DNA of 64,000 nt from an uncultured Bacteroidota bacterium (GCA_942493315.1 OW818690.1:942696-1006695), one strand, 5' to 3'; numbered from the stretch's first letter, positions 16,919-61,360 are shown. Numbers and translations: made by a program. The notes: generated by a model from the sequence alone, not told the origin.

Positions 16919-16922
16919 CGGT

Positions 16923-39012: not shown

Positions 39013-39020
39013 TATCTTTG
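39013..39020 (+). promoter_or_regulatory. -7 promoter box (TATCTTTG) for the AAA ATPase gene
   Basis: It overlaps the TTG start tracked at 39018, which supports the ATG at 39036. Confidence 0.4.
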
Positions 39021-39035
39021 CCAAAAATTATATCC

Positions 39036-41609: not shown

Positions 41610-41694
41610 GCCACAAAAGTAGTAAAAAAATGAGAATAAATCGGGAGAAAAGGGCGAAGGGCTAATGGCACAGGGCTAATGGCTAATGGGGAAA

Positions 41695-41786
41695 GGGATA
41701 GGGGAGATCTTGTTCCTTTTCTTTCATAAGTTATAAGGTTTTAGGTTTTGGGTATTGGTTTTTTAGAAATTTTTCATTTTTCATTC
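41695..41786 (+). repeat. Repeat R-B copy 1 (shared about 95-nt block)
   Basis: gggataggggagatcttgttccttttcttt..agttataaggttttaggttttgggtattggttttttagaaatttttcatttttcattc. It is near-identical to 56300-56399 apart from an 8-nt indel. Confidence 0.7.
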
Positions 41787-41826
41787 GTCCGTAGTCCGTT
41801 GTCCGTAGTCTGTAGTCTATTTTCTC

Positions 41827-42056
41827 AGGGCGTGCCGGCTTCCCCACCCACAATCCAACCCACGCCGTCGGTCTCCGGCCCATTTTCAGAATGCTCAATG
41901 TGCTCGAATGCTCTTGTGCTCATATACTCGATAGCTCTTTTCATTTTTCATTTATAATTAGCACAATACTATTCACTATTCACTATTAGTTATTAACTAA
42001 TTTTTCATCCCCTAAGCAGCTCAACTTGCGGGGTATCTGGCCTCCGCCCTAATGCG
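41827..42056 (+). repeat. GC-rich repeat family A, copy A2 (interior replaced by low-complexity modules)
   Basis: The 5' part agggcgtgccggc..gtcggtctccggccc and the 3' part ctaagcagctcaacttgcggggtatctggcctccgccctaatgcg match A3 and A1. Confidence 0.6.
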
Positions 42057-42430
42057 AAAAACCTGCGGTTTTTTGGGTTTTAGGTTTTGGGTATTGGTTT
42101 TTAGTTCTCAGTTTTTGCTCCGGTCTCCAGTCCCTCGTCTCTTGTCCATTTTTCATTTCATTTGCTAATTTTTCCCGAAATCCTCTGAAACACTCCCCCC
42201 TCTCCCCACTCTCTTCTTTTGTCCTTCGTCCTTCGTCCAATTAGCTCATTATCATCTCCCTCCCCGCGATCTGGAAGATGGTCTCTATAGTTGATTAGTG
42301 TAAAGAGAATTAAAAAATAGAGCATGTCAATATTCAAGATCAATCAGTTATTTTTTATAATTAACTGTATTTTAATTGTTAAAAATCCTTAAAAAGAATA
42401 AAATCATTTGGATAAGTGGTTTTTAGTTTC

Positions 42431-42438
42431 TAAATTTG
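42431..42438 (+). promoter_or_regulatory. -7 promoter box (TAAATTTG) about 210 nt upstream of the five-gene operon
   Basis: TAnnTTTG followed by TCGCGTA, the same extension as at the ssb promoter. No other box lies closer to the ATG at 42648. Confidence 0.4.
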
Positions 42439-42647
42439 TCGCGTAAAAATTGGATCACTAAAATTTTTCTATTTCATTCTACAGTTGACTTTAAAATAAT
42501 TTGTGAAAATCTTTATAAAACAAAACACACTTAATTAATTATTGTTTTAAGAGAATAGTTTTTTAAGTTCTTATATTAACATCAGAGAACTAGATTTTTT
42601 TAATTTTAAAATTATAGCAATATTAAAATAAAAAACCCCAATAAATA

Positions 42648-45515
42648 ATGAAATTCAAATTACAAACTTGTTTTATTGGTTTAACTGTAGCAACTTTTTT
42701 AGTTACGATTGGCATTATATATTTTGGTTACATCAACAAAACTACAGATCGTCTTTATTTCTCAATAACCCAATTTGACTTGCCTAATAGTAATGACTTT
42801 ACTATTGGGGAGAACTCTGATATATGCTATAAGGATATACCTGAAAAGTATATGACTGTGTCGTATGATAATGGCGCATTTTCATACAAAATCAATAATT
42901 CAGATAGTTGTTTGTATTATTTCATAAACGACACCAATTATAACAAAGTTACTATACACATAAACGATAATATACAAGTTTTTGGACAAGTTTTTTCCGG
43001 TAAGTATTTAATCAACAAGCTGAAAAAACTCGACAATGAGTATTATATGCTTAAAGATGTAATGATTGATGATTTGAGTACTAAAATTCGCAATTCAATT
43101 AACACTGGTGAAATTGAATTCAACTCATTTATTCAAAAGAAACATAATAAATACTATCTTATCATTCTTGACAAATTTACAAAAATAAATAATATTGGTT
43201 ACTGTTATTCAAAAACTTTAAGTCCGGGTCAAGAATTTAAGATCCAGTTTTTCAAAATGAATAGTTGGAGTGTAAAAAAACAAGAAAAAAGATTTTGGGA
43301 TTATGTGCAATTTTGGGATTACAAAACCTATCTTTCTGACAGTATACGTTCTTATTTTGCAAAACCAGTGCAAATATTTACTGAGTGGGGTGCTGGTCAT
43401 ATCCTTGTAAAGAGAAATGATTTGCATTATTCAGCAACTTTCCCTAAAGCAATATCAACTACTATCCCAATAAAAAGGATAATTGAAACTGCTGATAGTT
43501 CTGAAACAGGGGTATATCTCAAACAAATGCTGAAATCATACTATATGCCTACTGATTTTTATATTCCTGCATTTTCTAATGCACTTTCTGAAAATATTTG
43601 TGAACTTTCGGTAGCAGAAAATTTTAACTTGGTTTTTCAAAAAGCAAATAATAGAGATACAGCAAATTGTCTAACGTCGGGTAGTTTAATACCAAAAATT
43701 AATATAAAAAATCAACAACTTGTTACAGGTGGTATTACGTACAAAACCCGGGTTTTAAATACTGCATTTTATTGGTCGAAGCATTGGTCGTTAGCTATTG
43801 CATGGTTTATATTGATGTTAATTTTACATTTTTCCTTTCCAAAATCAGGCGATGAACCATATGCAGAAAAAGTAAAAGACATTCGTTCATATATTTGTGG
43901 AATGTTTACTTTGTTCTGGTTTTTCCTTAATCAGAAGCTTTTAATTGCCGAAAAACTGACATTTACTTATCCTTATTTTGAAAAAATTTATTCTGTTGTC
44001 TACATAACAACATTGTTTTCGCTTTTTGCTGTGTTTTTGCTTATAGTGTTGATAAATCGTTCGTATTTTGATGAAAATGCACTTGGCGAAGACAGGTACA
44101 GTAACAACCCTTTTAGAGTAAAAAAATCAGGTTGGTTCAATTGGATTATTGCATGCGGAATAACTTCGATCTGTATTTATGCATACTGCAAAATAAAATC
44201 AAATTTTATCTTGCCGATTTGGAATAGTTATATTGACAAAGATTCTTTAGATATATGGACATTTTGGAAATGGCAAAAGATAGGTATGCTAAATGATAAT
44301 CATTTTACTGTATTTATGATAATTGGCAGCTTATTAATTTTCTTGTTGGTATTATTTATAATCTTATTTTGTATTAAAAGAAAATGGTTTAAACGAATTG
44401 AAAAAGTAAAAAAAATAACTCGTTGGACTGAACAGATATATGATATAATATATAGCAGAGTTTCAAATTTGATTAATTTTAAAAAACCTAAAACTTATGC
44501 GATTTACCTTATAATAATAATTATTGCATTATTCTTTGTGGTTGCACTATTAGGTAATTCTGGAACGGCAGTTGCCATTATAATGCTTTTACTTTTGCTT
44601 GGCAAAACAATGAAAGTTTTAATTGATGACTTTAATCAGATAGAGGATTTCAACAAATGGGCGAAATGGATATTCTTGACGATGTTGGGAGTCTGTATAT
44701 TTGTTGGAATCGGTATGTATGATTTCGGATTTTTCATTAATGTTTTTGGGATTGCTGTTACTTGGATTTTTTTAATTATTTTATCAGCAAAGTATTTTGA
44801 TAATTATGCAGATGAAAACGAGACAATTATCAAAAAGCAAATAAAAAAAGGACTGGGTTTAGGTTTTTTACTGGTTATTGTTAGTTGTTTCATAATTTTT
44901 TGGTGGAATTCAAACCCTGAAAAAATTGATTATGAAAGAAATACTCGTAGAATACAGAACTGCATTTATCCAAATCAAGTAAAAGAGGCAGGTTATCTTT
45001 ACACCGAAAGCGATATGCAGTGGATGGAAGTAATGCGGCACTATGCAGAAAAGGCGAGCAAATCAACAGACGATATTTACAGTGAAGATAATAATTTTCA
45101 CCAACTTATTGCATCTGGGCAATCGCCTGTTGTGCTTAATGATGTAAGCATACCTACTGTTTATCTTGGCTCTTTGCGTTGGTTGGGATTGTTTGGTTTG
45201 TTTTATGGAATAATGGCTTTGGGTTTTTTTGTCTATTCGTTCAGCATTGGTGATGTTAAAAGAATTAATAGTCGCGGCAATAACATTTATCCAATCAACC
45301 TTCAATTGATAAGGCGATTGCTTGCAGGTAACTTATGGATTTTTGTTACACTATATCTGATTAAATCTTATTATTGGGACAAATTACCCGTGCCTTTCAC
45401 TGGACGCCTGATACCTGGATTTGGAGTTGATGCAGTTGGAGAAGCATTAGAAATTATTGTGTTATTTGCATTTATGTGTTCTTTATATAATCCTTATAAA
45501 CAAAATATAAAATGA
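42648..45515 (+). CDS. Operon gene 1: 955-aa polytopic membrane protein, with an unknown N-terminal domain of about 360 aa and a divergent SEDS (RodA/FtsW)-like C-terminal part
   Basis: About 13-14 hydrophobic helices. Motifs comparable with E. coli RodA as I recall it: GNSGTAVAIIML vs PDLGTSILVALS; RRIQNCIYPNQVKEAGYLYTES vs [27 protein letters not shown]..LGLFG vs HTDFIFAVLAEELGLVG; LPVPFTGRLIPGFGVDAVGEALEIIVLFAF vs LPVVGVPLPLVSYGGSALIVLMAGFG. Confidence 0.5.
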   Translation: MKFKLQTCFIGLTVATFLVTIGIIYFGYINKTTDRLYFSITQFDLPNSNDFTIGENSDICYKDIPEKYMTVSYDNGAFSYKINNSDSCLYYFINDTNYNKVTIHINDNIQVFGQVFSGKYLINKLKKLDNEYYMLKDVMIDDLSTKIRNSINTGEIEFNSFIQKKHNKYYLIILDKFTKINNIGYCYSKTLSPGQEFKIQFFKMNSWSVKKQEKRFWDYVQFWDYKTYLSDSIRSYFAKPVQIFTEWGAGHILVKRNDLHYSATFPKAISTTIPIKRIIETADSSETGVYLKQMLKSYYMPTDFYIPAFSNALSENICELSVAENFNLVFQKANNRDTANCLTSGSLIPKINIKNQQLVTGGITYKTRVLNTAFYWSKHWSLAIAWFILMLILHFSFPKSGDEPYAEKVKDIRSYICGMFTLFWFFLNQKLLIAEKLTFTYPYFEKIYSVVYITTLFSLFAVFLLIVLINRSYFDENALGEDRYSNNPFRVKKSGWFNWIIACGITSICIYAYCKIKSNFILPIWNSYIDKDSLDIWTFWKWQKIGMLNDNHFTVFMIIGSLLIFLLVLFIILFCIKRKWFKRIEKVKKITRWTEQIYDIIYSRVSNLINFKKPKTYAIYLIIIIIALFFVVALLGNSGTAVAIIMLLLLLGKTMKVLIDDFNQIEDFNKWAKWIFLTMLGVCIFVGIGMYDFGFFINVFGIAVTWIFLIILSAKYFDNYADENETIIKKQIKKGLGLGFLLVIVSCFIIFWWNSNPEKIDYERNTRRIQNCIYPNQVKEAGYLYTESDMQWMEVMRHYAEKASKSTDDIYSEDNNFHQLIASGQSPVVLNDVSIPTVYLGSLRWLGLFGLFYGIMALGFFVYSFSIGDVKRINSRGNNIYPINLQLIRRLLAGNLWIFVTLYLIKSYYWDKLPVPFTGRLIPGFGVDAVGEALEIIVLFAFMCSLYNPYKQNIK

Positions 45516-46921
45516 GAGAAGAAAAAAAAGCAGTTCTGAAAAAATTAGGTAAAATTTTGCTAAATAATGGTTTGTTGATTGCGATTTTGTTGTATTTTAT
45601 TACATGTGGATTTTTTTGCAACAATTTTAACGGCAAATGGTTATTGTGGTTGTTTATTAGCTGTTTTATAGGTTGGTTGTTTTCATTCTTTTATAAAGAG
45701 TATGAAAAAGCTGATGAAATGACCATTGAACCTGTTATTTATGATCACAGATATGACGAGCAAGTAAGTTGGAAAGACAGATTGAAGAATATAGGAAAAA
45801 GCGTACGTGAGATGTCAGGGTGGAATTACTTACGTTGGGCTTTAATTATATCATTTTTATCGGTCGCATGCTATATTATGCACGAAAGCTTATCCTCGTT
45901 ATGGATAAAGAATGAAAAATGGGATAAAATTTTTTGTTGGTTTTTATCAATGATTGTTATTATAACCTTATTTTGGATAACTGGTTGGATAACCCATCAA
46001 CATTCAAAAATAAATAACAGCTACAAAAAATTGTTTTTTTTCAGTTGTATTGGACTTTACATTCTCTTCGATTTAGCTCCCTTTACTTTCAATTATTTTC
46101 ATATATATAGCAATTTTGGGAATACTCAAATAATGGCTCAGACCGTAAAGGCAAGTGATGAATTGATTAAACTTATAAAACCTATTATTTGGGAAGAAAT
46201 AAAACCTAAACAAATTATTTTAGATAGTTTAAATAATGTAAACAAAGAATATTTTAATGAGATAAAAAACTGTGAGAAACGAAAAGAAATATTATTGGAT
46301 TCATTTGACAAAATGGCTACTAGCATTAATCCATCTGGTAGAACTTCTAAATTTAAAACAACAAAAGACGGTGAAACTACTAAAACAGAAAGTTCAATTA
46401 CAACGATTAATAATCGGGTTAATCAAATAAGTCGACAAATAGAAAGTCTCAATAAGAAAGTTAAGGGAAAAGAGATATTTGAAAAAACAACTCCAATAGT
46501 AAATGATTTAAAAAGAACAGATATATTATTAAATGAAATTGATTCATTAATTAGAATATACAATGAAGCAAAATTTGATAATAATAAGGAAAATCAAATA
46601 AATATAACAAGAGATATAATTTTTAATGTAGGAAAATTAAATGGAGAATTTATTGATGATTCGATTTCAAAAAAACTTATTAGTATTATCAATTCTGAAC
46701 AAATTGAAAGGGATAAAGCATTAAATGATTTATTTGAATTGATTCTAGGTAAATATGAAGATAATAACAATCAATTGCCTATTGAAAAAAGAGAAATCCA
46801 TACACTTTTACATAAAGTTAGTATTCAGAGCGTTGCTTTAAGTGCCTTAATTGATTTAGCTCCTATTTTTTTGGCACTCTTGATTACTTTTCCAACAACA
46901 AACAGGAGAAAAAGACAATGA
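45512..46921 (+). CDS. Operon gene 2: 469-aa membrane protein with a central coiled-coil-like region and a C-terminal TM
   Basis: ATGA overlap with gene 1. It has about 5 N-terminal TM helices, a long charged Lys/Glu/Asn-rich helical region, and a terminal helix. The short motif DLAPF/DLAPIF is repeated. Confidence 0.55.
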   Translation: MREEKKAVLKKLGKILLNNGLLIAILLYFITCGFFCNNFNGKWLLWLFISCFIGWLFSFFYKEYEKADEMTIEPVIYDHRYDEQVSWKDRLKNIGKSVREMSGWNYLRWALIISFLSVACYIMHESLSSLWIKNEKWDKIFCWFLSMIVIITLFWITGWITHQHSKINNSYKKLFFFSCIGLYILFDLAPFTFNYFHIYSNFGNTQIMAQTVKASDELIKLIKPIIWEEIKPKQIILDSLNNVNKEYFNEIKNCEKRKEILLDSFDKMATSINPSGRTSKFKTTKDGETTKTESSITTINNRVNQISRQIESLNKKVKGKEIFEKTTPIVNDLKRTDILLNEIDSLIRIYNEAKFDNNKENQINITRDIIFNVGKLNGEFIDDSISKKLISIINSEQIERDKALNDLFELILGKYEDNNNQLPIEKREIHTLLHKVSIQSVALSALIDLAPIFLALLITFPTTNRRKRQ

Positions 46922-49251
46922 GTCAAGAGACGTCACATATTCGTATTAACCTGTTTTCTTTTTTCAACCACGAACAAGAAACAAACAAAATTCTAGAAAA
47001 CTTTGGGACATTACTTTGTCAAGACAAAGTTTTCGATAAAAGTTGGGGATTTATACGAAAAAAAGTAGAAGGAACTGAAAACTCATTTTATATTGGTGGT
47101 GGCAGAATGTATTTACCAAAACGACAACTTTCTTTTTACAATGAACAACCACCAAGGGAAATTTTTGGAGATATAAAAGAAAATGATATTGAAAAAAACA
47201 TCCAAGATTGGTGTAATTCAGCTGATATTTTTCTTCTTTGTTTACACTCAAATAATAAACCTGAAACAAAGTTTATTTCTCGATTAAATTGGTATATAAA
47301 AAAACACAATAGAAATAAAACAATTTTATATACGGTAACAAATTATATTAGACAGTTTGAATATTCCACTTTCGATGAATATGCTAATTTTTCAGTTACT
47401 CTTAATCAAGAATTGAATCATGCATATTTTCCGTATTCTGAAACAAATGAATTTATAAATTGGAAAAATGAAAAATTTTGTATTTGCAAAGAACTATTCT
47501 GTTTTACTAAACAAGCAAACAGTTACATTGATTTTTTACTATTTTGCCTCAATCAACTATACAAAGATATTGCGGAAATTAAAATTTCAGACAATAAAGC
47601 GTATCATTACAAAACAACGAATATAAACTTTAAATCATACAATAATATGGGAACAACTATAAAACTTGCAATAGTCGGCGCACCTAAAAACGGTAAATCG
47701 CATTTAATTTGGGATATTTACCAAATTTTCGAACAACAAGGTCGTAATTTGACTTTTGTAGAAGATGATTCATATGCAAGTCCTCAAATGCTTGCAAATA
47801 AATTGCTATCTGAAGACGCGCTAAATAAAACGCCTCACTCTTTGCAAACCAAAAGCAAAAATCATTACAAAGGACAAAATAAAGATTTTATTTTAGAATT
47901 TATGGATGTCGCGGGTGAGGCTTTTGATGACGGCAAAGTGATAACCGAACAATTTCGCACAATTAAAATGATGCTTAAGAAAAGTAGTTATTTCAATAAT
48001 AATAAGCCATTTATAGAACATTCTGATGATAAAAAAATCAGTATAACGTTTAATAAAAATGAAAATACTACAACTCAAAGTCCGTCTCAACTCCAAACAG
48101 ACGAACCGTCTGGACGTGAGGGAATACCACAAACGCAACAAGATGAAAGCAATGTTTCTCAAAATAATTTAAACAGGAATATAAAAACCCAACAAAGAAA
48201 TGGGAAATATATTGCTAAAAATTTTGAGAGGTACGATACTGAGAGTTTAATTGCATGTTTGAAACAAGTTGTTACTTTCGCATTACGAACAGACGGATTA
48301 AGTCGTTATCACGATACACTAAGAGTAATTAATAACGTTGATTTTTGGAATGATTTTTATGCTTATGTTTTTTGTGATAATTGTACAGACATTGTTTTTT
48401 GTGATTTAGTTACTTTACCAAATAACATGACTGCTATTTCTGAAACAGGCAAAGCATTTAGTCAATGTGTTTCAGGCGTTGGCGAGTTTTTAGCAGAAAA
48501 AAACACAAATTTCAAAGGTCGAAAGAAACCAAATATGTACGCTGTCTTTCGAGGATTAGATGCTATGATTACCTGTGATGATCAGAAAGATCCACAAGAA
48601 AACAAACTAAAAGAAATTTTAAAAAATACTAATGATGAAACAAAGAAAAAGTTATTACCCTTTGTGTATTTTCTATTTCATTTATCCGTTTATCAAAATT
48701 TCATGAATGATTATTTTACAAAAGATGATTTCGATAAATTATGTGAAAGTATTATTAATAATAACAATTGTTTTATCAAACAACTACAGTCTCTAAATCT
48801 AGATTTAACCGATAAAACTAACCTACAAACTTTTTTGTCTGGATTGCTCAAAAACGATACGGAATTTACTATAAACGATAGCAGGTCTACAAAACTTAAT
48901 GATGTATTCTACGATAGAATAGAGAAGCTAAGAAATATGAACGGTATGCTTGAAAGATTCAATGGAAATTCAGATATTTTTCCTCATATTTATTTTACGG
49001 CATATCCTATTTGTCAGAAATTAGACATTCATAAAAATTTGCCTGTAGATGGTAACCCTAATAATATTGACGGTTTAACTCCCACAGATTTACGTTTCCC
49101 TTTGGGGGTATATAATTTTATTACAGATTTAGTATATTCACATACGCAAAGCGGCAAACAGGGAACTGATATGGAAAACTATTTGTATTTAAGTAAGAAT
49201 GTACAAAAACAAAACAAGTTTAAACAGATATGGAAAATAATAACGAGATAA
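46918..49251 (+). CDS. Operon gene 3: 777-aa soluble P-loop GTPase-like protein (active-looking core preceded by a degenerate copy)
   Basis: ATGA overlap with gene 2. Walker A/G1 is G254-APKNGKS-261 (47677-47700) after the strand IKLAIV. A DxxG/G3-like D330-VAG-E sits after the strand ILEFM (47905-47919). The N-terminal 150 aa show a strand pattern without a P-loop. Confidence 0.6.
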   Translation: MSQETSHIRINLFSFFNHEQETNKILENFGTLLCQDKVFDKSWGFIRKKVEGTENSFYIGGGRMYLPKRQLSFYNEQPPREIFGDIKENDIEKNIQDWCNSADIFLLCLHSNNKPETKFISRLNWYIKKHNRNKTILYTVTNYIRQFEYSTFDEYANFSVTLNQELNHAYFPYSETNEFINWKNEKFCICKELFCFTKQANSYIDFLLFCLNQLYKDIAEIKISDNKAYHYKTTNINFKSYNNMGTTIKLAIVGAPKNGKSHLIWDIYQIFEQQGRNLTFVEDDSYASPQMLANKLLSEDALNKTPHSLQTKSKNHYKGQNKDFILEFMDVAGEAFDDGKVITEQFRTIKMMLKKSSYFNNNKPFIEHSDDKKISITFNKNENTTTQSPSQLQTDEPSGREGIPQTQQDESNVSQNNLNRNIKTQQRNGKYIAKNFERYDTESLIACLKQVVTFALRTDGLSRYHDTLRVINNVDFWNDFYAYVFCDNCTDIVFCDLVTLPNNMTAISETGKAFSQCVSGVGEFLAEKNTNFKGRKKPNMYAVFRGLDAMITCDDQKDPQENKLKEILKNTNDETKKKLLPFVYFLFHLSVYQNFMNDYFTKDDFDKLCESIINNNNCFIKQLQSLNLDLTDKTNLQTFLSGLLKNDTEFTINDSRSTKLNDVFYDRIEKLRNMNGMLERFNGNSDIFPHIYFTAYPICQKLDIHKNLPVDGNPNNIDGLTPTDLRFPLGVYNFITDLVYSHTQSGKQGTDMENYLYLSKNVQKQNKFKQIWKIITR

Positions 49252-51842
49252 AATTTTCGGTAATAGTAAGAGGTTCACTTACAACAAAAGAGGGTTATGT
49301 AGAAATTGCTTCAACACAAACTCATGCTATTTTACCAAACGATTTTGAAAATAGACACTCAGAAGATTTTTCGAGCGAATATGCCTCTTTGCTTGCGTTT
49401 AGGACAGAGAATTCTCCTTTTTTGTCAGTTATTCATATTCAAGGGCAACACATTGGAAGTTCATTGGCTGGTAGAATCTACGATACAAGAATTTTCTACA
49501 ATATTGATTCTGCAAGCTTGCGAAATTGTCATTTAAAAATTGGATCTATTGTCGGTAGTTTACCTCGAATACTGTCATTTTCCGAGAAGAAATTTGATTT
49601 AACCAACAGTGTATACGTAAAACCGTATAGGTTGTCAAAATCAGAGGCCGCAATAAATGGACTTAGCAGATATATAATGCAAGCCATTGTTGAAGGTAAA
49701 CGGCTTATTGTGAAATTAGATAGAAAAGATGCAGGATATTGGAAAGAAAATGGTGTTTTGGAAAATAATGAAGCACAAATGTTATTCGTTGCTATTGATT
49801 CTTTACCTGAAATATTGAGACCAGTTGCCTCTTTTGCGTTGTCGGTTGATGAGAAATTTGATAAAGACATATTAAAATATACTAATATAATTTTATATCA
49901 TGGCAACCGTAATAATCTTGCAATTAAAATTGATTCAAATACTTGCATTGAAGTTGCTTGGGATGATTTGGATAAAAATAACAACGACAAATTTTTCAAT
50001 CAACAAGATTTTTTTTCAAAAGTAGCATTGTGCACAATTAACAAATATCAAAGTGAAAATTTTGACTTCAAATACAAAGATTTTTTCAATTCAAAGTTAT
50101 CCTCAAAAGGAATGCTAGATGGTATTTATGATGTTCAAAAAGACCCTAATTTAAAAAAAAGTGTTGAATACCTCAAAATACAAAAAGATTGGGAACGACT
50201 TATTCGACACCCTGAAGTAATTGATAAAATAAGAGTAAATGCAGAAGAATTAGATTTTAATTTAAATAATTTATATAACTTCTTTGAAAATAATAAAAAA
50301 GTAGAAATCAGAGAAAAATATGTAGAATTTTTCTGTCTGACAAAATCTGAATTACAGGTCAATAAGCAACTTGAAATATTAAAAACAATTCTAAATATTC
50401 CAGATGCTAATATTGAAAAAGAATTAAAAAATCTATTATTAAATAAATTGACATTACAAATATTTCATCAAAACTTAAATATTGATGAATGGATAGAAGT
50501 TGCAGAACTTTTTATTAATACAAAATATGAGCAACAATTAATTGAAAAGACAAAGCAACAAGATTTATACTTTTTTGAGAAACTTTATAAGAAAGGTAAA
50601 TACTTGGAGATTGTCGGACAATGTTTCAAAGAAACGACTGCTTACAAAAATAATTTTAAAGAAATATGTCAAAAGCCATTTATTGATTATTTGCCTGAAG
50701 AAAAATTACAAATGTTGAGATTTAAGTTTCTTTCTAATTGTGAAAGCTCTGATTTTAAGGAAATATATAAAGATCTCAAATTTGAAGAAGTAGAAAAGTT
50801 TTTGGTAAATAAAAACAATGATGAATATATTGTAAAATTGATAATTAAATATTTTCCAAATAAATGTAAGCAATTTATTGAACAAAATTCTGAAATTACC
50901 ATTTCTCAAATTGGAAAAGCTATATTAAATAATGATGATGTTACTAATAGTGAAATTTATAAGTTGTACAAAAAAGCAGATCTGAAACCCACAAAACCGC
51001 AAATAGAATTAACAATTTCTAATCTTGAAAATATATATAATAATACCCAAAAACTTGAATTTGACATATCAAATGAAATTACAAAACTATATATATCTCA
51101 TCCAATAATAACCAATTGGAAAAAAATTCATGAAACAACAAATCAAAATCCACCGGAAGAATTTACATTAAACGAGATTATTGATAAAAATGAACTTAAG
51201 GCTTATCAATATTTATTAAAACAAAACATTAAATTACCTGAGATTAATATTGAAAAAATGATCAAAAACACTAATGATTATGACAGTTTTTGCAATTTAT
51301 TTGATGATCTTACAGAATTAAAAATCGATTTTTCAGAGTTTAAAAAAACATTAGAAAAGAAACAATTCGAAAGGAAAAATATTATTTTAAAAAAATATTT
51401 TAACAATAAAAGCTCATCATCTTTATCACAAGAAAATATTAGGAAAAGATTGGTTATTTTAATTTTAATTGCTTTGATCATTGGTTTTGGAGGTGGATAT
51501 AATATGAGATCTTTAATTACAAGTAAAAAAGAACAGAAGGAAACAACTTTGAACTCAATTCAAGATACTGTAAATATTCAAACACATGATTTAGTAAATC
51601 AAACTTTTTTAATTTTTTATAGAAAACAAATTAATAATGATATTTATTCAAATAACGATACGATCAAAGCAAACGAAAAGAGTTTAGCGGATTGGTTTTC
51701 TCTATATAAGGAAAAGAATTTGATAGTGGACTCTATTAAATTAAAGGATTCAGTTTATTTATTAAAATTAAAAATAGATGGACCTGAATCAGCAACAATC
51801 TTTTATCAGAAAATAGACTCAATAATTAACAATTTGAAATAA
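49230..51842 (+). CDS. Operon gene 4: 870-aa mostly helical protein with a single TM near the C-terminus
   Basis: 22-nt overlap with gene 3. The TM LVILILIALIIGFGGGY spans aa 741-757 (51450-51500), with a tail of about 110 aa beyond it. I recognise no catalytic motif. Confidence 0.55.
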   Translation: MENNNEIKFSVIVRGSLTTKEGYVEIASTQTHAILPNDFENRHSEDFSSEYASLLAFRTENSPFLSVIHIQGQHIGSSLAGRIYDTRIFYNIDSASLRNCHLKIGSIVGSLPRILSFSEKKFDLTNSVYVKPYRLSKSEAAINGLSRYIMQAIVEGKRLIVKLDRKDAGYWKENGVLENNEAQMLFVAIDSLPEILRPVASFALSVDEKFDKDILKYTNIILYHGNRNNLAIKIDSNTCIEVAWDDLDKNNNDKFFNQQDFFSKVALCTINKYQSENFDFKYKDFFNSKLSSKGMLDGIYDVQKDPNLKKSVEYLKIQKDWERLIRHPEVIDKIRVNAEELDFNLNNLYNFFENNKKVEIREKYVEFFCLTKSELQVNKQLEILKTILNIPDANIEKELKNLLLNKLTLQIFHQNLNIDEWIEVAELFINTKYEQQLIEKTKQQDLYFFEKLYKKGKYLEIVGQCFKETTAYKNNFKEICQKPFIDYLPEEKLQMLRFKFLSNCESSDFKEIYKDLKFEEVEKFLVNKNNDEYIVKLIIKYFPNKCKQFIEQNSEITISQIGKAILNNDDVTNSEIYKLYKKADLKPTKPQIELTISNLENIYNNTQKLEFDISNEITKLYISHPIITNWKKIHETTNQNPPEEFTLNEIIDKNELKAYQYLLKQNIKLPEINIEKMIKNTNDYDSFCNLFDDLTELKIDFSEFKKTLEKKQFERKNIILKKYFNNKSSSSLSQENIRKRLVILILIALIIGFGGGYNMRSLITSKKEQKETTLNSIQDTVNIQTHDLVNQTFLIFYRKQINNDIYSNNDTIKANEKSLADWFSLYKEKNLIVDSIKLKDSVYLLKLKIDGPESATIFYQKIDSIINNLK

Positions 51843-51845
51843 AAT

Positions 51846-54659
51846 ATGGTAAACTTTAATCCACATAACAAAAAAATGCTTTGGGCAATAATTATAGTAA
51901 TTGTTTTGATAATAATTTGTGTATTTATTATTTCCTTTTTCAGTCATAGTAGTAAAAGTTATTATGAACCCATTTCCGAACAAAACAGAGGCTTTATCGG
52001 CAAGGCAGATGCTCTATTTGATAAACTACTTAATGAAAATACTATAGACAGTATAGATGCAAGAAGTTTGAGCGATCTAAACAGAAAATATCCTGCTTTC
52101 TTTTTTGATATTCCAGATTCGCTCAATCAAGATATTAACATTCAAGATATTCGCTTGGTAGGCATCAATGAATCCCTATTAAAAGATAAAAAGGATATTA
52201 CTTTTTATGAAAGTAGTGATTTACGAAATCTATTTAAGCAGCAACGATTAAATAAAGATAAAGCATATTTTAAAGTCTCTATAAAAAAAGAAAAGGGAAA
52301 TCTTTATATTAAAAAAATACAAATGATACGATCATTGTTTAAAATAAAGTTTTCAAATCAAATTTGGGAAGGAGATATCTTAGGACAATTCAATAATCCC
52401 ATAAATGATGAGAATTCAAGATATTTCATTTATGGTAGTTCTGTATTACCTATTCGTTTACAGAATTATCAACTAAATACAAATAACGACATGTCCAACT
52501 ATCCAGTATATCTTTTAGATGATAAAATACATGGTAAAGGTATATTTAAGAAAATTGATAATAAATTTGTCAATTTTGACTTGTATGAACATTATAATAA
52601 ACATTATTGTGATTCAAGTGAGTGTTTTGAATTGAAGTTTGATACTCTAGAACATGACAACAACCATTTTATGTCTTTGCAGGTTTTAAAGAATAAATTG
52701 ATTTTTGATTTAGATCAACGTTTAACTGTAACATGCATTACCAAACAGAATCAACAAAAACTAATATCCGGTTCTGGAGCAAAAGAAGGCCGTAGAATTT
52801 TTAATTACGCTCCAGATTCTGAAAACATAAGGATTATTATAGAAAATGAGAATGGATTAAAATTAGCTGAATTTCATATTGCGAAGCATAATCCCTTGAA
52901 AAAACTATCCTATATTATCGAAACTAATAAAGGAAAAACGCGTAAACAAATTGATTCAAAATATACAGATGTGTTCACACAACAAGTTGTACTTAATTTT
53001 CTTAAAAATATTAACGAACAAGATACTCAAAGTGTAATTTCTTTATCAATAGACCCATATCTTTCTTGTGCTTTAGAGAAAGAACTTGAAAATTATGGGA
53101 ATACATTTATACCTGAAAATGGATTAACTAATAATGAACATTTTGAAATTTCAATATGTGTAATAAATACAGCAACAGGAGAAGTCTTAGCTGCACCATA
53201 TTACAACTATACCCCTTTGCCTTTAAGTCAAGAAAGGAAAATCTCAAAAAGAAATCCAAATATGACTCGCCGTTATATTGGTTCGTGTTTTAAACCTTTA
53301 ATGGCGCTGGCGTCCACGCAGTTATATCCTGAATTATTAAATCTTACAACTGGGATACACAGTGGAAGGACTCAAGCCCCAATAGCAACTGGTGAAACTT
53401 ATATTAAAAACCATATTACATATAATTACTATAATACAGAGATATTGGGATGCCCTTTTTATCATACATTTAGTACAACAGCTTCTAATATACAACATTA
53501 TACAAAACCAATAAATATGGAAACTTTTTTAGCTTCATCAAATGATGTTTTTCCAGTAGTCTTGGCAATGTATAGTTTAACAAAATTCAAAAATAATGAT
53601 CCTTTAACACAAGAAAATACGAATTTACAAAATTATATTTCACAAAACAATAATTCAAGTAATATTTCATTATTAAATCCTATAACAAATTATCAAAATA
53701 ATGGAATTTTATTTGCAAATACGATGAATGCAATGGATTTTGATATTCATAAAAGTAATTTTGCAAAAGTATTGGACAATCTCTATTCAATTAAGTCAGA
53801 AGCAATTTTTAATACCGATTTTTTTGATCCAGAACCTGCACGTTATTTATTACGATATTTTGAAGATAGTATAATGATTTCGGAAATTTCTCCAGATTAC
53901 ACGAATATGGACTATTACAGTTGGAACGATAGTGTAAAATCATTCAGGAGTACAGTTGTTCCTTGGGTTTTAGGGCAAGGGACGAATGAATGGTCCCCAC
54001 TGAAATTAGCAGAAGCATGGGCACGAATGGTAACAAAATTTCCATTAAGATTATCTTATATTCATAACGAACATGTATCTGATATCTATAATGGTAGTTT
54101 ATTATACCAGCAGACACGTAAGTTATTGGGTGATAGATCCGGAAATCGTGAAACATGGAACACTTTTTTAGATATTTTTAAAGCTGCACAATCAAATACA
54201 AGTGTTGATGGTTCGAATACTCTAATCAAGGTATTCGATTTAATACAGAGTATTAACACAAATCAAAATAGAACTGGAAACAATCGTTTAATTGTTTTGG
54301 GTAAAACGGGCACTCCCGATGATTATGAACAAAGTGACTGGCAACACTTTGATATTTCGGGGAAGATTATTTATGATATCGGTTTATATACTTTCAGCAT
54401 TATGACTGAAGGACAATATCAAAGTCTCAAAAATAATATAACTATACCATCAAGAACAATCCCAAATGCAGGAATTACAGCAGTAATTAGGATTGTCCAT
54501 GCATATCCTGTTGGGATAACACCATTACTTATTACTCGGATTATTGCTCGGAATCAAATTTCTCATAATATTGATTCTAATAATGCCCGCAACTTTATTT
54601 CAAATGATAATCAAGTCTTGGGAAAAATTATTTTCTATAATGATAGACTTTTTAAATAA
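51846..54659 (+). CDS. Operon gene 5: 937-aa N-anchored protein with a penicillin-binding-protein transpeptidase-like domain
   Basis: N-terminal TM (LWAIIIVIVLIIICVFIISFF). PBP blocks: ISLSIDPYLSCALEKEL, VINTATGEVLAAP, S480-CF-K483 in RRYIGSCFKPLMALAS (53283-53294), S564-S-N566 (53535-53543), and K820-T-G822-T (54303-54314). Confidence 0.7.
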   Translation: MVNFNPHNKKMLWAIIIVIVLIIICVFIISFFSHSSKSYYEPISEQNRGFIGKADALFDKLLNENTIDSIDARSLSDLNRKYPAFFFDIPDSLNQDINIQDIRLVGINESLLKDKKDITFYESSDLRNLFKQQRLNKDKAYFKVSIKKEKGNLYIKKIQMIRSLFKIKFSNQIWEGDILGQFNNPINDENSRYFIYGSSVLPIRLQNYQLNTNNDMSNYPVYLLDDKIHGKGIFKKIDNKFVNFDLYEHYNKHYCDSSECFELKFDTLEHDNNHFMSLQVLKNKLIFDLDQRLTVTCITKQNQQKLISGSGAKEGRRIFNYAPDSENIRIIIENENGLKLAEFHIAKHNPLKKLSYIIETNKGKTRKQIDSKYTDVFTQQVVLNFLKNINEQDTQSVISLSIDPYLSCALEKELENYGNTFIPENGLTNNEHFEISICVINTATGEVLAAPYYNYTPLPLSQERKISKRNPNMTRRYIGSCFKPLMALASTQLYPELLNLTTGIHSGRTQAPIATGETYIKNHITYNYYNTEILGCPFYHTFSTTASNIQHYTKPINMETFLASSNDVFPVVLAMYSLTKFKNNDPLTQENTNLQNYISQNNNSSNISLLNPITNYQNNGILFANTMNAMDFDIHKSNFAKVLDNLYSIKSEAIFNTDFFDPEPARYLLRYFEDSIMISEISPDYTNMDYYSWNDSVKSFRSTVVPWVLGQGTNEWSPLKLAEAWARMVTKFPLRLSYIHNEHVSDIYNGSLLYQQTRKLLGDRSGNRETWNTFLDIFKAAQSNTSVDGSNTLIKVFDLIQSINTNQNRTGNNRLIVLGKTGTPDDYEQSDWQHFDISGKIIYDIGLYTFSIMTEGQYQSLKNNITIPSRTIPNAGITAVIRIVHAYPVGITPLLITRIIARNQISHNIDSNNARNFISNDNQVLGKIIFYNDRLFK

Positions 54660-54831
54660 CAAAAATAATAGATTAGGCTAATAATATTTTTCAGACTGAA
54701 GTGAAAATTTCGCCTCCATCTGAGTCACATGTTTTACCAAAAATTGGAGTTTATTTTTTGAATTTTTCTTTTAAGCAAGAATATTTAAAACCTTAATTTT
54801 TTTTTATAAACTATAAAATTTTTAAAGTTAT

Positions 54832-55329
54832 ATGATAAAAAATGAATTTTTCTGGGGGATTGTTGTTGGAGTTGTTCTAACCATTTTTGGGACACTGGTA
54901 CAATTTAAACTTTTTGCCTATTATGATAAACAAAAAATAAACAATGAATTGGCAATCATAACTTGTAAAACTATAAATTCGCGTTTGATTAGATCAAGTA
55001 ATGTTATTACATCATCCTCAAGTGATGTCTTTAATGAAAGATGGAATGAGTATATTATTGAAGGTGTTTATAAATGGAATGAATATAGAGGTTTGATTGA
55101 GCATTATTTGGCTGGTACTAAACCATTATTGAAATCTGAATTCAATTCTCTGAATTCAAAATTTGGTGTGTTACATAATAACTTAATAAGGATTCGTCAG
55201 CTTCAAAATTCAATTTCAAAAGATAAACAAATTGAGCTTGTTGTAAAAAAAAAAAAATCATTAGATATTTGTAAGGATATTCAAGAAACTTTAAACAAAT
55301 TCGAAAATGAACTTTTACAGTTTAATTAA
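54832..55329 (+). CDS. Hypothetical N-anchored 165-aa protein downstream of the operon
   Basis: N-terminal TM (FFWGIVVGVVLTIFGTLV) followed by helical sequence. Same strand and the same AT-rich composition as the operon. Confidence 0.4.
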   Translation: MIKNEFFWGIVVGVVLTIFGTLVQFKLFAYYDKQKINNELAIITCKTINSRLIRSSNVITSSSSDVFNERWNEYIIEGVYKWNEYRGLIEHYLAGTKPLLKSEFNSLNSKFGVLHNNLIRIRQLQNSISKDKQIELVVKKKKSLDICKDIQETLNKFENELLQFN

Positions 55330-55442
55330 AGTATGAATTTAATAATACTCTGTCCCTATTTATTTTATTTTCCCAAAAAAACCACATTCCACTCCCCTCT
55401 CCAATCCCCATAAATTGAACTTCCTATGCCCCATTCCGAAAT

Positions 55443-55510
55443 ACTGCACTTTTTCCTCTAAAAACTGCACATTTTCCTCGAAATAATGCACGGGTTGCGA
55501 AAAACTGCAC
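55443..55510 (+). repeat. Iteron-like direct repeats, 4 x A(A/C)TGCAC at 21/21/19-nt spacing
   Basis: actgcac at 55443-55449, actgcac at 55464-55470, aatgcac at 55485-55491, and actgcac at 55504-55510. The first two units share a longer context (a(t/a)actgcac(t/a)ttttcctc). Confidence 0.6.
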
Positions 55511-55765
55511 CCCCACAATTTTTTTTCTAACCCATTGTTTGATATTGTTTTTTTTGTATTTTTGACTCACGGAAAAATACTACACATACTCACTCGAGAA
55601 ACAGTTTCCATCTCACTTTTTACGTTCTTTGTTTCCTGTTTTATATCACTTGTTTTGAAGGGTTTGTTCCTTTTGATGTCATAGTTTTTTAAAGTAATAA
55701 CATGCGGGACACGATTACTTTTGAATCACATTGATCAAACTGTCGGAATGAATGACTCCTCCGGT

Positions 55766-55773
55766 TATCTTTG
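55766..55773 (+). promoter_or_regulatory. -7 promoter box (TATCTTTG) immediately upstream of the 21-nt tandem array
   Basis: TAnnTTTG match ending 11 nt before the first repeat unit. Confidence 0.35.
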
Positions 55774-55784
55774 TGTTGGATCAG

Positions 55785-56014
55785 GATCGGTTTCAATTCG
55801 GGCATGATCGGTTTCAATTTAGTCATGGTCGGTTTCAAATTGAGCATGATCGGCTTCAAATTGATCATGATCGGCTTCAATTCGGGCATGATCGGTTTCA
55901 AATTGAGCATGGTGGGTTTCAATTCGGGCATGATCGGTTTCAAATTGGGGGTGGGCGGTTTCAATTGAGCATGGTGGGTTTCAAATTGGGGGTGGTGGGG
56001 TTCAAGTTGGGCAT
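55785..56014 (+). repeat. Tandem array of 11 units of 21 nt (one unit is 20 nt), consensus gatcggtttcaa(a)tt(c/g)(g/a)gcat
   Basis: I parsed the units manually. They are contiguous with no spacers. Six units start with GATC and one further GATC lies inside unit 4. Confidence 0.9.
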
Positions 56015-56131
56015 AAGTGACTGCTGGCTGGAAGTGCTGATTGTCTAAGAGTACAGGTGATATGAGCCTTGTTTTGGCTTCATTCTGAAGTAAAAATAAA
56101 ATTATTATTCACAATCAAAAAAATTTCAGTT

Positions 56132-56278
56132 ATGGCAAAAAAGTATTTCCTAACCGAGACAGAAATGTTGGAGCAGTTTAGAATCTCCTTCGACAATGCA
56201 AAAAATCAAACAGAAATCGCAACCATTATGGCGGAGTTCGGATACGATTCCGCAGTGATGAAGGCACTGAAGGGCTAA
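56132..56278 (+). pseudogene. Short ORF, probably a 5' gene fragment truncated by repeat modules
   Basis: MAKKYFLTETEMLEQFRISFDNAKNQTEIATIMAEFGYDSAVMKALKG* runs straight into the ggctaatgg repeat block. Confidence 0.2.
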
Positions 56279-56299
56279 GGGCAAAAGGCTAATGGCCAA

Positions 56300-56399
56300 G
56301 GGATAGGGGAGACCTTGTTCCTTTTCTTTTATTTATCCATTAGTTATAAGGTTTTAGGTTTTGGGTATTGGTTTTTTAGAAAATTTTCATTTTTCATTC
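56300..56399 (+). repeat. Repeat R-B copy 2
   Basis: Near-identical to 41695-41786 and in the same orientation. Confidence 0.7.
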
Positions 56400-56410
56400 T
56401 TCATTATTTT

Positions 56411-56599
56411 GGCATCGGCGTTTTGATACGAAGCTATTTATTTCTTCGATTCATTCATTTATCGTAAAGGCGCTTCTACTCAACGACCTTAGATTTCCCC
56501 ATATATCACTGAACAAAGGTCGCTGAGTAGAAACCGCATTTTAGACAAAACCTTAAAAATAAGACAAATCAGGTTTCGTATCGAAGCGCCGACGCTATG
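56411..56599. repeat. Nested imperfect inverted repeat (long hairpin or MITE-like)
   Basis: Outer arms are ggcatcggcgttttgatacgaagc (56411-56434) and gtttcgtatcgaagcgccgacgctatg (56573-56599). Inner arms are ttctactcaacgacctt (about 56474-56490) and aaggtcgctgagtagaa (about 56517-56533). Confidence 0.55.
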
Positions 56600-56607
56600 A
56601 ACGAAAC

Positions 56608-56816
56608 GGCATTAGGGCGGAGGCCAAGTACCCCGCAAGTTGAACAGCTTAGTGGTGCACGAGACGGGCAGAGCGACGAAGGAGCTCCTGCACGGCCGAT
56701 GCACCACTTGCTGTGAAACGAGGAGTACAGGCCGGAGACCGACCCTTTGGCAAGCGACGGGGATCGTTTTCGGGTGGGTGAAAGTGGGGTTGAGCGCAGA
56801 CAAAGGGGAATGCCCT
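56608..56816 (-). repeat. GC-rich repeat family A, copy A3 (most complete, minus orientation)
   Basis: The reverse complement starts agggcattcccc, contains gtcggtctccggcc and aggagctc, and ends ..ctaagctgttcaacttgcggggtacttggcctccgccctaatgcc. Confidence 0.6.
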
Positions 56817-57116
56817 GAATAGTGAATAACTAATAGTGAATAGTTTTTGAAGTAAAAAGTAAGAAGTAAAAAGTAAAAAGTTACATTTTTCATTCGCCTT
56901 TCGCCCTAATGGAACACGGATGCCGCGGATTTTCAAACGCGGATTTAAACGGATTCTTTTTGGTTCACTAAGTTTCTCGAAGTTTTAACAAAGCTAAAGA
57001 AGATCTATTTTGTGAAACTTTTTTAAGCTTCTTTTAACGTTGAGCTTCAAAAACCGTGAGTGTGCCAAAACCATGAAAAGTAGGAATGCGTTTGTGGATT
57101 ATTCAAAAAAATTTTT

Positions 57117-61343: not shown

Positions 61344-61360
61344 CACCAAATATTATCTCA

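Follow-up and report, generated by a model that had tools for sequence, protein, structure and literature searches.

Organization of the repeat-bracketed segment

The window, a 64-kb stretch of DNA from an uncultured Bacteroidota bacterium, contains an orphan operon lying between two facing copies, A2 and A3, of a GC-rich repeat designated family A. The relevant features, with positions counted from the first letter of the window, are as follows:

13922-14086, plus strand: A1, a short family-A copy ('A1-type') without the 5' hairpin P2, found with nhmmer
41238-41609, minus strand: 123-aa gene, the nearest conserved gene on the left side of the variable segment (34% aa identity to its L084 ortholog)
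41655-41790, no strand: R-B copy 1, a heptamer-array mosaic with a unique 35-nt stretch, 5' of A2
41827-41883, plus strand: 5' remnant of A2, A1-type, GGGCGTGCCGGC...GTCGGTCTCCGGCC
41884-42004, no strand: inner filler of A2, about 120 nt of heptamers and mosaic in place of P4's 5' strand and tip
42005-42057, plus strand: 3' remnant of A2, left arm
42058-42072, plus strand: small hairpin AAAACCTGCGGTTTT, then GGTTTTA-type arrays ('class 2' 3' flank)
42648-54659, plus strand: five-gene orphan operon (ORF calls of 955, 469, 777, 870 and 937 aa)
54832-55329, plus strand: 165-aa ORF, also linked to the operon in L153 (31% aa identity)
55437-55510, no strand: four iteron-like repeats of about 21 nt, CGAAAWACTGCAC...
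55758-56014, no strand: 21-nt tandem array, 11 units
56133-56278, plus strand: 48-aa ORF ('gene fragment'), running into R-B copy 2
56265-56402, no strand: R-B copy 2, repeating copy 1 in direct orientation
56411-56601, no strand: 'pal', a long-hairpin repeat element of about 190 nt ('class 4' among the 3' flanks of family A)
56609-56821, minus strand: A3, a full-length family-A copy, right arm (positional counterpart at 12062-12273 of L032)
57594-58292, minus strand: HTH and Peptidase_S24 (LexA/CI-like) gene, in the right flank conserved with L032 (76% aa identity)

The convergent arrangement of A2 (41827-42057, plus strand) and A3 (56609-56821, minus strand), with their 3' ends inward, had been proposed in the original prediction and was confirmed by both a repeat search and a profile HMM trained on 48 related copies; the latter detected exactly three family-A loci in the window, A1, A2 and A3, the first of them starting 10 nt past the stop codon that ends a gene for a T9SS-secreted protein (Pfam). 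The repeat search placed the inverted arms at 42009-42055 and 56609-56655, over 47 nt with 89% complementarity (42/47 on recount), and recounting the portion at 42012-42055 returned the predicted values of 40 matches in 44 positions and a terminal perfect 18-mer, TGGCCTCCGCCCTAATGC. The likeness of the repeats is not due to chance. The geometry of the bracket, on the other hand, may be, since three randomly oriented copies give at least one convergent adjacent pair half the time.

The assignment of A2 to family A holds for its 5' 57 nt and its 3' 53 nt, but these are separated by approximately 120 nt of heptamer arrays, with bases 41975-41994 identical to the array located 5' of A3. A2 is a decayed chimera: the middle 60% of the element is missing, both termini are kept, and the copy is unable to form the family's long hairpin. 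In addition, the 3' part of A2 resembles the family consensus (49/53) more than it does A3 and shares 92% identity with the L146 copies, and A3 shares 92% identity with a non-orthologous copy in L114. Each arm is thus nearer to copies from other genomes than to the opposite arm, and the two do not behave like a matched pair. Regarding the adjoining modules, the 'class 2' flank follows many family-A copies, including the truncated one in L032, and pal is also present in L082, L115, L117, L120 and L152.

All the enclosed elements that had been predicted (the five-gene operon, the 165-aa ORF, the iteron-like repeats, the 21-nt array and the gene fragment) were located. ORF3 of the operon encodes a P-loop GTPase with weak similarity to DO-GTPase1, and only 6 homologs were found among 5.8 billion proteins. 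The identical five-gene order occurs in six unrelated contigs (L153, L154, L155-157 and L158), none of which carries family A; these occurrences show the operon to be independent of the repeat. An array homologous to the 21-nt tandem array adjoins a family-A copy and pal in L082. The cargo of the window gave no match to known defence families and, as anticipated, no transposase, integrase or recombinase domain was detected in the six ORFs enclosed by 41827-56821. The GC content of the enclosed DNA is 28.4%, in comparison with 33.5% for the window, and that of the operon is 28.4%, in comparison with 36-43% in the flanking core genes. The enclosed DNA is accessory, with its low GC, its absence from both relatives that share its flanks (see below) and its right boundary, which coincides exactly with the 3' end of A3.

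Family A is an abundant structured intergenic repeat

Family A is a lineage-specific, GC-rich element of about 215 nt. Searches with nhmmer yielded 94 copies in 74 related sequences totalling 558 kb; the window has 3 per 64 kb, and its nearest relative 3 per 18 kb. These counts cover the window and sampled related loci, and figures for the whole source genome, for family A as for the R-B repeat, are an extrapolation from them. The original prediction was to be given up if inverted pairs at this spacing could be expected by chance, and the repeat was indeed found to be this abundant. Furthermore, a family-A 21-mer matched 72 metagenome stretches, often at contig ends.

The element folds as a three-way junction made up of P1, a terminal stem pairing both ends, P2, a 5' hairpin with a variable loop, and P3/P4, a long 3' hairpin. 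Over 48 distinct copies, 99% of the cells were paired and 15 of the 52 pairs were compensatory, with changes on both sides in 150 cells vs 32 in shuffles (0/500), and slid controls reached 31-46% paired. This fold is strongly supported. Folding was better on the forward strand (z of -4.3 and -4.9, vs -2.8). Rfam 15 gave no match in the window at gathering thresholds, and nothing relevant at E<=10 within 56400-57000. Copies are mildly preferred 3' of co-oriented genes (44 vs 27), their neighbours are ordinary core genes, and they are kept at orthologous sites in every related-locus pair found.

With many dispersed intergenic copies and a conserved secondary structure, family A belongs among the structured intergenic repeats. 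Like REP/BIME, ERIC, BOX and Correia/NEMIS, it is multi-copy, intergenic, lineage-specific and stably structured, and it shares with REP/BIME-type repeats the occurrence in mosaics (here with heptamer arrays, pal and hairpins), the 3'-side preference and the core-gene neighbours. It differs from them in being a three-way junction with paired termini and not a simple palindrome, in being far longer than REP, and in its association with an IS1595-like gene instead of RAYT.

Family A is linked to an IS1595-like transposase in relatives

In relatives, family A flanks a divergent IS1595-family transposase gene on either side, as the outermost of the modules there. The gene product, a 341-aa ORF present in 14 loci, contains an IS1/IS1595 zinc domain above cut-off and matches the IS1595 transposase over its full length with E values of 1e-11 to 1e-17, a match that lies below the NCBIfam curated cut-off. 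All the family-A copies beside this gene (16/16) have their 3' end toward it at stereotyped distances, and a 30-nt extension ('ext') and the ATATTCTWATAAAWGYAGGG motif are present at every transposase-linked arm. These data place family A as the terminal module of elements that include an autonomous member with a transposase gene. Among the many non-autonomous derivatives are copies standing alone, doublets without genes and doublets that enclose small passenger genes, the latter holding a 207-aa lipoprotein, DUF559 or a toxin/immunity pair. Close pairs are convergent in 13 of 13 cases (about 10 independent), and the gene-less doublet of L152, with 336 nt inside, repeats the order of modules in the window pair: A(+), then the hairpin, the arrays, pal and A(-). 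The transposase is encoded in the nearest relative (L032 2-142, L125 12945-13442); no copy lies within the 64-kb window.

The pair A2/A3 has its 5' ends outward, an orientation that pairs in relatives also show, both around the transposase gene and around passenger genes without a transposase. As cassette ends, the two copies have the right polarity and A2 keeps its termini, but A2 is disrupted inside and the ext and ATATTCTWATAAAWGYAGGG motif are absent from the inner flanks of both. Target-site duplications had been suggested as a check outside the bracket; none was found around the pair in any register within +/-3 nt, the outer flanks being ...CTATTTTCTC followed by AGGGCG on the left and GCCCT followed by GAATAGTGAA on the right. 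The search for an 8-bp duplication is a weak test, as none was seen at the transposase-bearing L109 unit either: the repeat ends of family A are sharp and the transposon ends loosely placed.

The inverted copies on both sides of the 341-aa gene are what is expected of an IS1595-family insertion sequence, and the transposase-less doublets, some with passengers, resemble the MITEs, mobile insertion cassettes and transporter IS derived from that family. On the contrary, the ends of IS1595-family elements are inverted repeats of 12-40 bp, in comparison with a module of about 215 nt with RNA-like compensatory evolution; their 8-bp target-site duplication has no equivalent at the window pair or at L109; and the window pair lacks both a transposase and the inner modules. 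Insertion sequences such as IS1397 and ISKpn1 target REP palindromes. Insertion at the centre of a palindrome leaves inverted flanking arms, which would fit the unequal arms of family A found around intact transposase genes (20 nt, 25 nt and 215 nt), but the symmetry of family A spans >250 nt and has no recognisable duplicated target.

The segment occupies a probable hot spot with differing cargo

The nearest relative, L032, shows 84% identity with the window over the S24, FeoB and DUF4838 genes and has a family-A copy at the site of A3. Similarity ends exactly at the 3' end of that copy, and the cargo beyond it is unrelated (HsdS, PDC-S13, HsdM, AbiLii and AbiLi, a defence island of type I R-M/AbiL). 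A3 and the copy at the same site in L032 are 75% identical, vs 84% for the flanking genes, and carry different hairpin variants, a divergence that could reflect independent insertions at a preferred site instead of inheritance. The far unit of family A plus hairpin is in inverted orientation to the S24-side copy in the window and in direct orientation to it in L032. The second relative, L084, has FeoB and orthologs of the 123-aa, 185-aa and YbjQ genes, and neither family A nor the operon at this locus; as an empty site it compares imperfectly, since arms and operon are missing but a different content of 4.3 kb is present.

The cargo of the window is thus absent from both relatives that share its flanks. 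Conserved flanks with differing cargo, in a comparison of three genomes in which the L032 contig ends before the left side, are the mark of an accessory or defence hot spot. The locus is like defence-island hot spots in that the S24/FeoB and 123-aa/185-aa/YbjQ flanks hold differing cargo in the three genomes; it differs from them in its cargo, which matches no known defence family, and in having no visible integrase or insertion machinery. The 14.5-kb segment did not behave as a unit in relatives: L032 keeps the right arm with other cargo, and the operon occurs elsewhere without the repeat.

Possible origins of the bracket

The original prediction likened the bracket to a composite transposon or to an inversion-prone or excision-prone cassette. 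The accessory nature of the DNA and the polarity of the pair are in agreement with this, but the arms, the missing target-site duplication and the relatives are not. As in Tn5 or Tn10, the cargo lies between two inverted repeats related to mobile elements. A composite transposon was nevertheless rejected, as A2 and A3 are non-coding elements of about 215 nt and not transposase-encoding insertion sequences, the arms match over 47 nt only and are not near-identical full-length copies, the unit as a whole has no target-site duplication, and cargo occurs without arms (six operon contigs) and an arm without this cargo (L032). An integrase-mediated island at a structured-RNA gene was also discarded, there being no integrase and the far copy being inverted and not direct.

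On balance, and with slightly better than even confidence, we take A2 and A3 to be residents that border an accessory-gene hot spot, and not the termini of a vehicle by which the operon arrived.

The main alternative, which we consider rather unlikely, is that the 15-kb unit is a present or past mobile cassette derived from an IS1595-like element, with A2 and A3 as its ends and the operon as passenger, mobilised in trans by a transposase from another part of the genome. The invariant polarity around the transposase gene and in the 13 close pairs, the several pairs holding passenger genes only, the retention of both A2 termini and the transposase of the nearest relative are all consistent with such a cassette, and the differing hairpin variants at the S24 site of two genomes fit repeated insertion. 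Passenger-carrying IS1595 derivatives have reportedly been described. This reading is weakened by the missing target-site duplication and inner modules, by the internal destruction of A2 and by a span 6 to 80 times that of any documented pair; moreover, the operon is never found with arms elsewhere, and the right arm in L032 accompanies different cargo.

Still less probable, in our opinion, is that the R-B copies, and not family A, are the exchange sites, so that the DNA spanning A2 through the 48-aa ORF entered or can leave by homologous recombination, through Campbell-type integration of a circle with one R-B copy, the segment being deletion-prone. The existence of this direct repeat was confirmed, at a greater length than the approximately 95 nt reported initially: its copies are of about 135 nt and about 93% identical, they flank A2, the operon and the trailing repeats, and they are by far each other's closest match (148-149 bits, vs <=37 bits for others in 158 loci). 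RecA-dependent exchange needs a minimum of about 25 nt, which their 41-nt exact run exceeds and the 18 nt of the family-A arms do not reach, and if the segment is excision-prone, the R-B repeats are the better substrate. However, R-B consists mostly of heptamer-array modules that recur across these intergenic regions, and, because a weakly similar mosaic lies in the same position 5' of a family-A copy in L127, copy 1 may be just the usual upstream mosaic of A2.

An invertible 14.5-kb switch flipped by recombination between the arms is very improbable: inverted repeats are present and the orientation of the far unit differs between the window and L032, but the arms share just 47 nt at 89% with a longest exact run of 18 nt, no invertase or recombinase domain was found within or beside the segment, flipping would join the operon to no evident alternative promoter, and relatives have no homologous cargo to display two orientations.

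If A2 and A3 are resident borders, the hot spot would be bounded by the S24/FeoB genes on one side and by the 123-aa/185-aa/YbjQ genes on the other, and A3 would have been in place next to the S24 gene before the lineages of the window and its nearest relative diverged. The GTPase operon and the 165-aa gene would then represent a rare module, complete in itself and moving horizontally, that inserted between A2 and A3, and the repeat pair itself would not have transposed together with it. Cargo may have been swapped by recombination at or near the repeats, with family A serving as portable homology between related genomes.

Inverted family-A repeats around the operon segment

A repeat search of the window recovered the inverted arms that bracket the five-gene orphan operon (ORF1-ORF5, 42648-54659, + strand), with nucleotides 42009-42055 and 56609-56655 being 89% complementary over 47 nt. 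Our recount of 42/47 matches, equal to 40/44 over 42012-42055 and terminating in the perfect 18-mer TGGCCTCCGCCCTAATGC, reproduced the arms of the original prediction. Scanning of the window with a profile of 48 related copies revealed exactly three loci of family A, the ~215-nt GC-rich repeat to which both arms belong.

Family-A copies in the window, as located with the family-A profile
13922-14086, + strand: copy A1
41827-42057, + strand: copy A2 (left arm), with family-A sequence only at 41827-41883 (5′ end) and 42005-42057 (3′ end)
56609-56821, − strand: copy A3 (right arm)

The three copies are GC-rich islands in an AT-rich window (33.5% GC). The interior of A2 is made of 120 nt of heptamer arrays, of the type normally found upstream of family-A copies, and the long hairpin of family A is therefore unable to form in it. 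All the features claimed to lie between the arms were found, and the segment indeed contains no transposase or integrase, nor any invertase. The direct repeat R-B, with one copy outside the left arm and the other inside the right arm, is genuine and longer than first described (41655-41790 and 56265-56402, ~93% identical, with a 41-nt exact run).

Family A is an undescribed structured module

A FeoB-anchored scan of species-representative genomes yielded one close relative, the MAG CTSoil_032 (locus L032; FeoB protein 95% identical, ~84% nucleotide identity), which carries three family-A copies in 18 kb; family A was absent from the other 79 Bacteroidales loci of the scan. A family-A 21-mer matched 72 metagenome stretches, and nhmmer identified 94 copies across 74 fetched hit-bearing sequences (558 kb). 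No match to Rfam was obtained at either gathering thresholds or permissive E-values, no tRNA or tmRNA was detected in the window, and a literature search by sequence returned unrelated primers only.

The 48 distinct full-length copies aligned well and shared one common fold, in which P1 (GCAUU/AAUGC) pairs both ends of the repeat, P2 (CCCUUUG/CAAAGGG) closes a variable C/A-rich loop, GGUCGGUCUCC forms the conserved junction, and P3/P4 is a long hairpin with four or five sequence variants. Standard pairs occupied 99% of cells in these copies, falling to 31-46% when partner columns were slid as a control. Compensatory changes were observed at 15/52 pairs, and 150 cells were changed on both sides, as compared with 32 in shuffles (0/500). 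P1 itself covaries, with A-U replaced by G-C in 12 copies and one U-G pair invariant. In addition, the forward strand folded better than the reverse (z of −4.3 and −4.9 vs −2.8). These pairing statistics and the better forward-strand fold indicate that one strand is structurally constrained, at the level of either RNA or single-stranded DNA. Deletion derivatives retain both termini: an A1-type form lacks P2, a form consisting of the 5′ part plus TAATGC lacks P4, and a 25-nt "mini" derivative is hardly more than P1.

Two other readings of family A were considered and rejected. A pure 3′-UTR or terminator element is contradicted by the proportion of co-oriented upstream genes, only 62%, and by the location of A2 upstream of a divergent gene. 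Protein coding is contradicted by the variation of the copies by 1-nt indels and in paired columns, and the ORFs at 56612-56936 overlap A3 only through the stop-codon scarcity of GC-rich sequence. A phage or plasmid origin was rejected as well: viral contigs gave no family-A match and ORF5 of the operon had no match in plasmid or phage collections.

Association of family A with an IS1595-like transposase

A Pfam census of 118 family-A neighbour ORFs returned ordinary core genes without any recurrent domain. This census overlooked a 341-aa ORF which recurs next to family A in 14 loci with 67-90% identity, and which NCBIfam places, as a divergent member, among the IS1595-family transposases: its zinc domain (NF050000) scored 38.6-45.7 bits (cut-off 28), and the transposase domain NF033547 was covered almost end to end with E-values of 1e-11 to 1e-17, a match that falls short of the curated cut-off. 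Sites of this multi-copy gene, always with family-A copies at its flanks, include L109 6063-8055, L107, L084 313-1861, L090, L131, L142, L111, L125 12429-13442 and L032 2-551.

Family-A copies located ≤500 nt from the transposase gene had their 3′ end toward it in 16/16 cases, at stereotyped distances (~235 nt on the 5′ side of the gene; ~310 or 460 nt on its 3′ side). The complete unit of L109, of ~2.0 kb, reads A(+), a conserved 30-nt module named "ext", a 105-nt segment, the transposase gene, a second 105-nt segment, ext and A(−), the 105-nt segments being bounded by inverted ATATTCTWATAAAWGYAGGG motifs. Intact-looking gene copies with one shrunken arm were also found (25 nt in L107, 20 nt in L131). 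Adjacent family-A pairs less than 2.3 kb apart (13, ~10 independent) were all convergent, and those more than 4 kb apart were mixed. Among the close pairs, those of L087, L112 and L152 contain no gene, and others contain passenger genes only (a 207-aa lipoprotein; DUF559; a JAB-toxin fragment with an immunity gene). The polarity toward the transposase gene, the convergence of close pairs and the existence of passenger-bearing and gene-less pairs show family A to be the outermost module in an IS1595-like element and its non-autonomous derivatives. No target-site duplication was found at any candidate boundary, and when the ATATTCTWATAAAWGYAGGG motif was considered as the true transposon end, the flanks at every candidate boundary were inverted, not direct. 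Family A may belong to the transposon ends themselves or may be a structured target for insertion. Altogether, it is an undescribed, strongly structured ~215-nt module, found as the arms of an IS1595-like element and of many derivatives.

In L119 (~860-900) and L088 (8008-8080), full family-A copies are directly followed by an inverted mini or partial copy, and the spacer in L119 consists of 13 nt corresponding to the start of ext; this arrangement may represent a footprint left by the IS1595-like element.

Small repeats and accessory genes around the locus

Tandem heptamer or octamer arrays of few types precede nearly every family-A copy, and the 3′ flank falls into one of four or five classes, including the following.

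Classes of family-A 3′ flank
Small hairpin plus inverted arrays
GAGACNG array plus the palindrome GTTCGACG
Hairpin element "pal", ~190 nt
Conserved 30-nt ext plus the motif ATATTCTWATAAAWGYAGGG

Intergenic heptamer arrays are already known from some bacteria, including a Paludibacter (PMC4679880). In the window, arrays of a few recurring types occupy 38833-38959, 40270-40317, 40636-40674, 41787-41817, 42070-42117 and 56850-56881, and similar ones were found in the 5′ flank of nearly every copy from L081 to L152. Arrays upstream of family A are G-poor, and those downstream are C-poor and in many cases reverse-complementary to the upstream type. The pal element at 56411-56601 is a long-hairpin repeat (~190 nt; DNA fold z = −5.2) that frequently follows family A, with further sites in L082 (831-2010, where a 216-aa lipoprotein gene splits it into two halves), L152 (378-545), L115, L117 and L120. 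The 21-nt tandem array at 55758-56048 may code for repeats of a 7-residue peptide on either strand. Since a homologous array occupies the same relative place, after family A and pal, in L082 (2032-2330), the 21-nt array is part of the resident repeat mosaic and not of the operon module.

Other dispersed repeats were observed. One with an internal palindrome (AATCTGCGTT...AACGCAGATT) lies at 40504-40586 and 56893-56961 and in L092, L115, L123, L138 and L150; one of its copies gave a weak, sub-threshold and probably meaningless CRISPR-DR35 match. The repeat at 40347-40475 has copies in L081 and L145, and that at 18592-18724 in L081, L089, L097 and L146.

At 16775-18520, an IS1634-family transposase gene (16923-18464) lies between the two copies of a perfect 33-nt direct repeat (16775-16807 and 18488-18520), and L146 624-739 resembles the uninterrupted sequence. 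A1 is followed, at 14581-16025, by the genes of a JAB-like toxin (293 aa) and a probable immunity protein (187 aa); L146 (847-1924) has a 98% identical immunity gene in other genomic surroundings, enclosed by convergent family-A copies. An AAA_14/DUF4143 ATPase gene (39018-40238) matching the PADLOC candidate PDC-S01 lies between the YbjQ and 185-aa genes of the left flank and is missing from that position in the more distant relative L084; it is a second accessory insertion adjoining the hot spot described below.

The locus carries different cargo in relatives

The L032 locus is collinear with the window over the DUF4838, FeoB and S24 genes of the right flank, and carries a family-A copy at the position and in the orientation of A3; similarity stops exactly at the 3′ end of this copy. 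Beyond it lie an HsdS fragment, a Bro-N/PDC-S13 protein, HsdM, AbiLii (RloB) and AbiLi (AAA_21), followed by a truncated family-A copy in direct orientation and the same small hairpin as that found after A2. In L084, a stretch of 4.3 kb separates FeoB from the orthologs of the 123-aa, 185-aa and YbjQ genes; it contains LysE, DUF1003, the gene of a TonB-dependent receptor and an uncharacterised 128-aa ORF, and no family A was found between FeoB and the 123-aa gene. The contents of the interval from S24/FeoB to the 123-aa gene thus differ among the window, L032 and L084, indicating that it is variable in all three genomes, and it holds a defence island in one.

A3 is only 75% identical to the positional copy of L032, with different P4 variants, and 92% identical to a non-orthologous copy in L114. 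This pattern suggests gene conversion or re-insertion at the A3 site. No empty site of a family-A copy was found among the fetched loci, where every orthologous pair was occupied in both members, partly by ascertainment, as these loci were fetched by the family-A 21-mer. Family A was seen at a synteny boundary once more in another relative, L129 (1-1719 vs window 61307-62631), where synteny with the window breaks immediately upstream of the DUF4838 gene with a family-A copy at the breakpoint.

The operon recurs as an intact module

Searches of Pfam, NCBIfam and PADLOC gave no family for the five operon ORFs, ORF3 excepted. ORF3 is a P-loop GTPase with invariant GxxxxGKS and DxPGE motifs and weak DO-GTPase1 similarity in 4/7 homologs; a profile search against PDB sequences gave nothing useful. 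Six ORF3 homologs were found among 5.8 billion proteins, which marks the operon as extremely rare. Among those looked up, the five-gene order was the same in contigs L153, L154 and L155-157 (a Falkowbacteria MAG), and contig L158, which starts inside the operon, has the last four genes in the same order. In L153 also, the operon is accompanied by the 165-aa gene found downstream of it in the window. The operon flanks were unrelated in every one of these other contigs, and family A was absent from all of them. In the window, the GC content of the operon is 28.4%, as compared with 36-43% in flanking core genes. Because the hot spot holds a type I R-M/AbiL island in L032 and the intact module recurs in unrelated lineages, the operon may be regarded as a candidate conflict or defence system, worth testing.

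Origin of the bracketed segment

We lean towards the interpretation that A2 and A3 are resident arms bordering a hot spot of cargo exchange, since the right arm keeps its position in L032 next to a different cargo. The original prediction had likened the geometry to a composite transposon or an inversion- or excision-prone cassette; what stands of it is an accessory insert bounded by mobile-element-related repeats, the pair giving no sign of having served as its vehicle, and several of the refuting outcomes that the prediction itself had named were observed. No target-site duplication was detected around the pair. Family A is frequent enough for such a bracket to arise by chance: three copies in random orientation would give a convergent pair of neighbours with a probability of one half, and the A2-A3 spacing of 14.5 kb is close to the mean family-A spacing of ~21 kb. 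One arm occurs in L032 without the cargo, and the cargo occurs in other contigs without arms.

A mobile cassette bounded by A2 and A3 appears rather unlikely, even though the two copies are oriented precisely as in the IS1595-like unit and in those of its derivatives that carry passengers, and A2 retains both termini. The gene-less doublet of L152 has the module order of the window bracket, A(+), hairpin, arrays, pal, A(−); it fits equally well an old doublet that received the operon and a doublet-bounded cassette that moved. The arms, which are short and dissimilar and encode nothing, speak against a composite transposon or an inversion cassette. Integration or deletion of the segment through R-B is improbable: its copies, which enclose A2 and the operon, are the only repeats at the locus long and similar enough for efficient homologous recombination, but they are made of common array modules, and in L127 a mosaic similar to R-B lies ahead of a family-A copy. 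That the segment inverts through the family-A arms is very unlikely.

A broader proposal, about as improbable as the one on R-B, is that family A would be the functional, structure-dependent end (RNA or single-stranded DNA) of an undescribed IS1595-like branch that routinely builds transposase-less cassettes, among which the 15-kb A2...A3 unit, with its five-gene GTPase operon of unknown function, would be by far the largest, and that the heptamer and octamer arrays adjoining nearly every 5′ end would be by-products of element activity.

Favouring resident arms at an exchange hot spot corrects the reading of this locus, as the repeat pair is no evidence for the orphan operon being on a transposon. 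The evidence for operon mobility is of another kind and stronger, namely its location in a hot spot and its recurrence as an intact module. Family A also breaks metagenome assemblies of this lineage, with many of its matches at contig ends. Finally, compensatory evolution within transposon ends is unusual, and suggests a function of family A at the level of RNA or single-stranded DNA.
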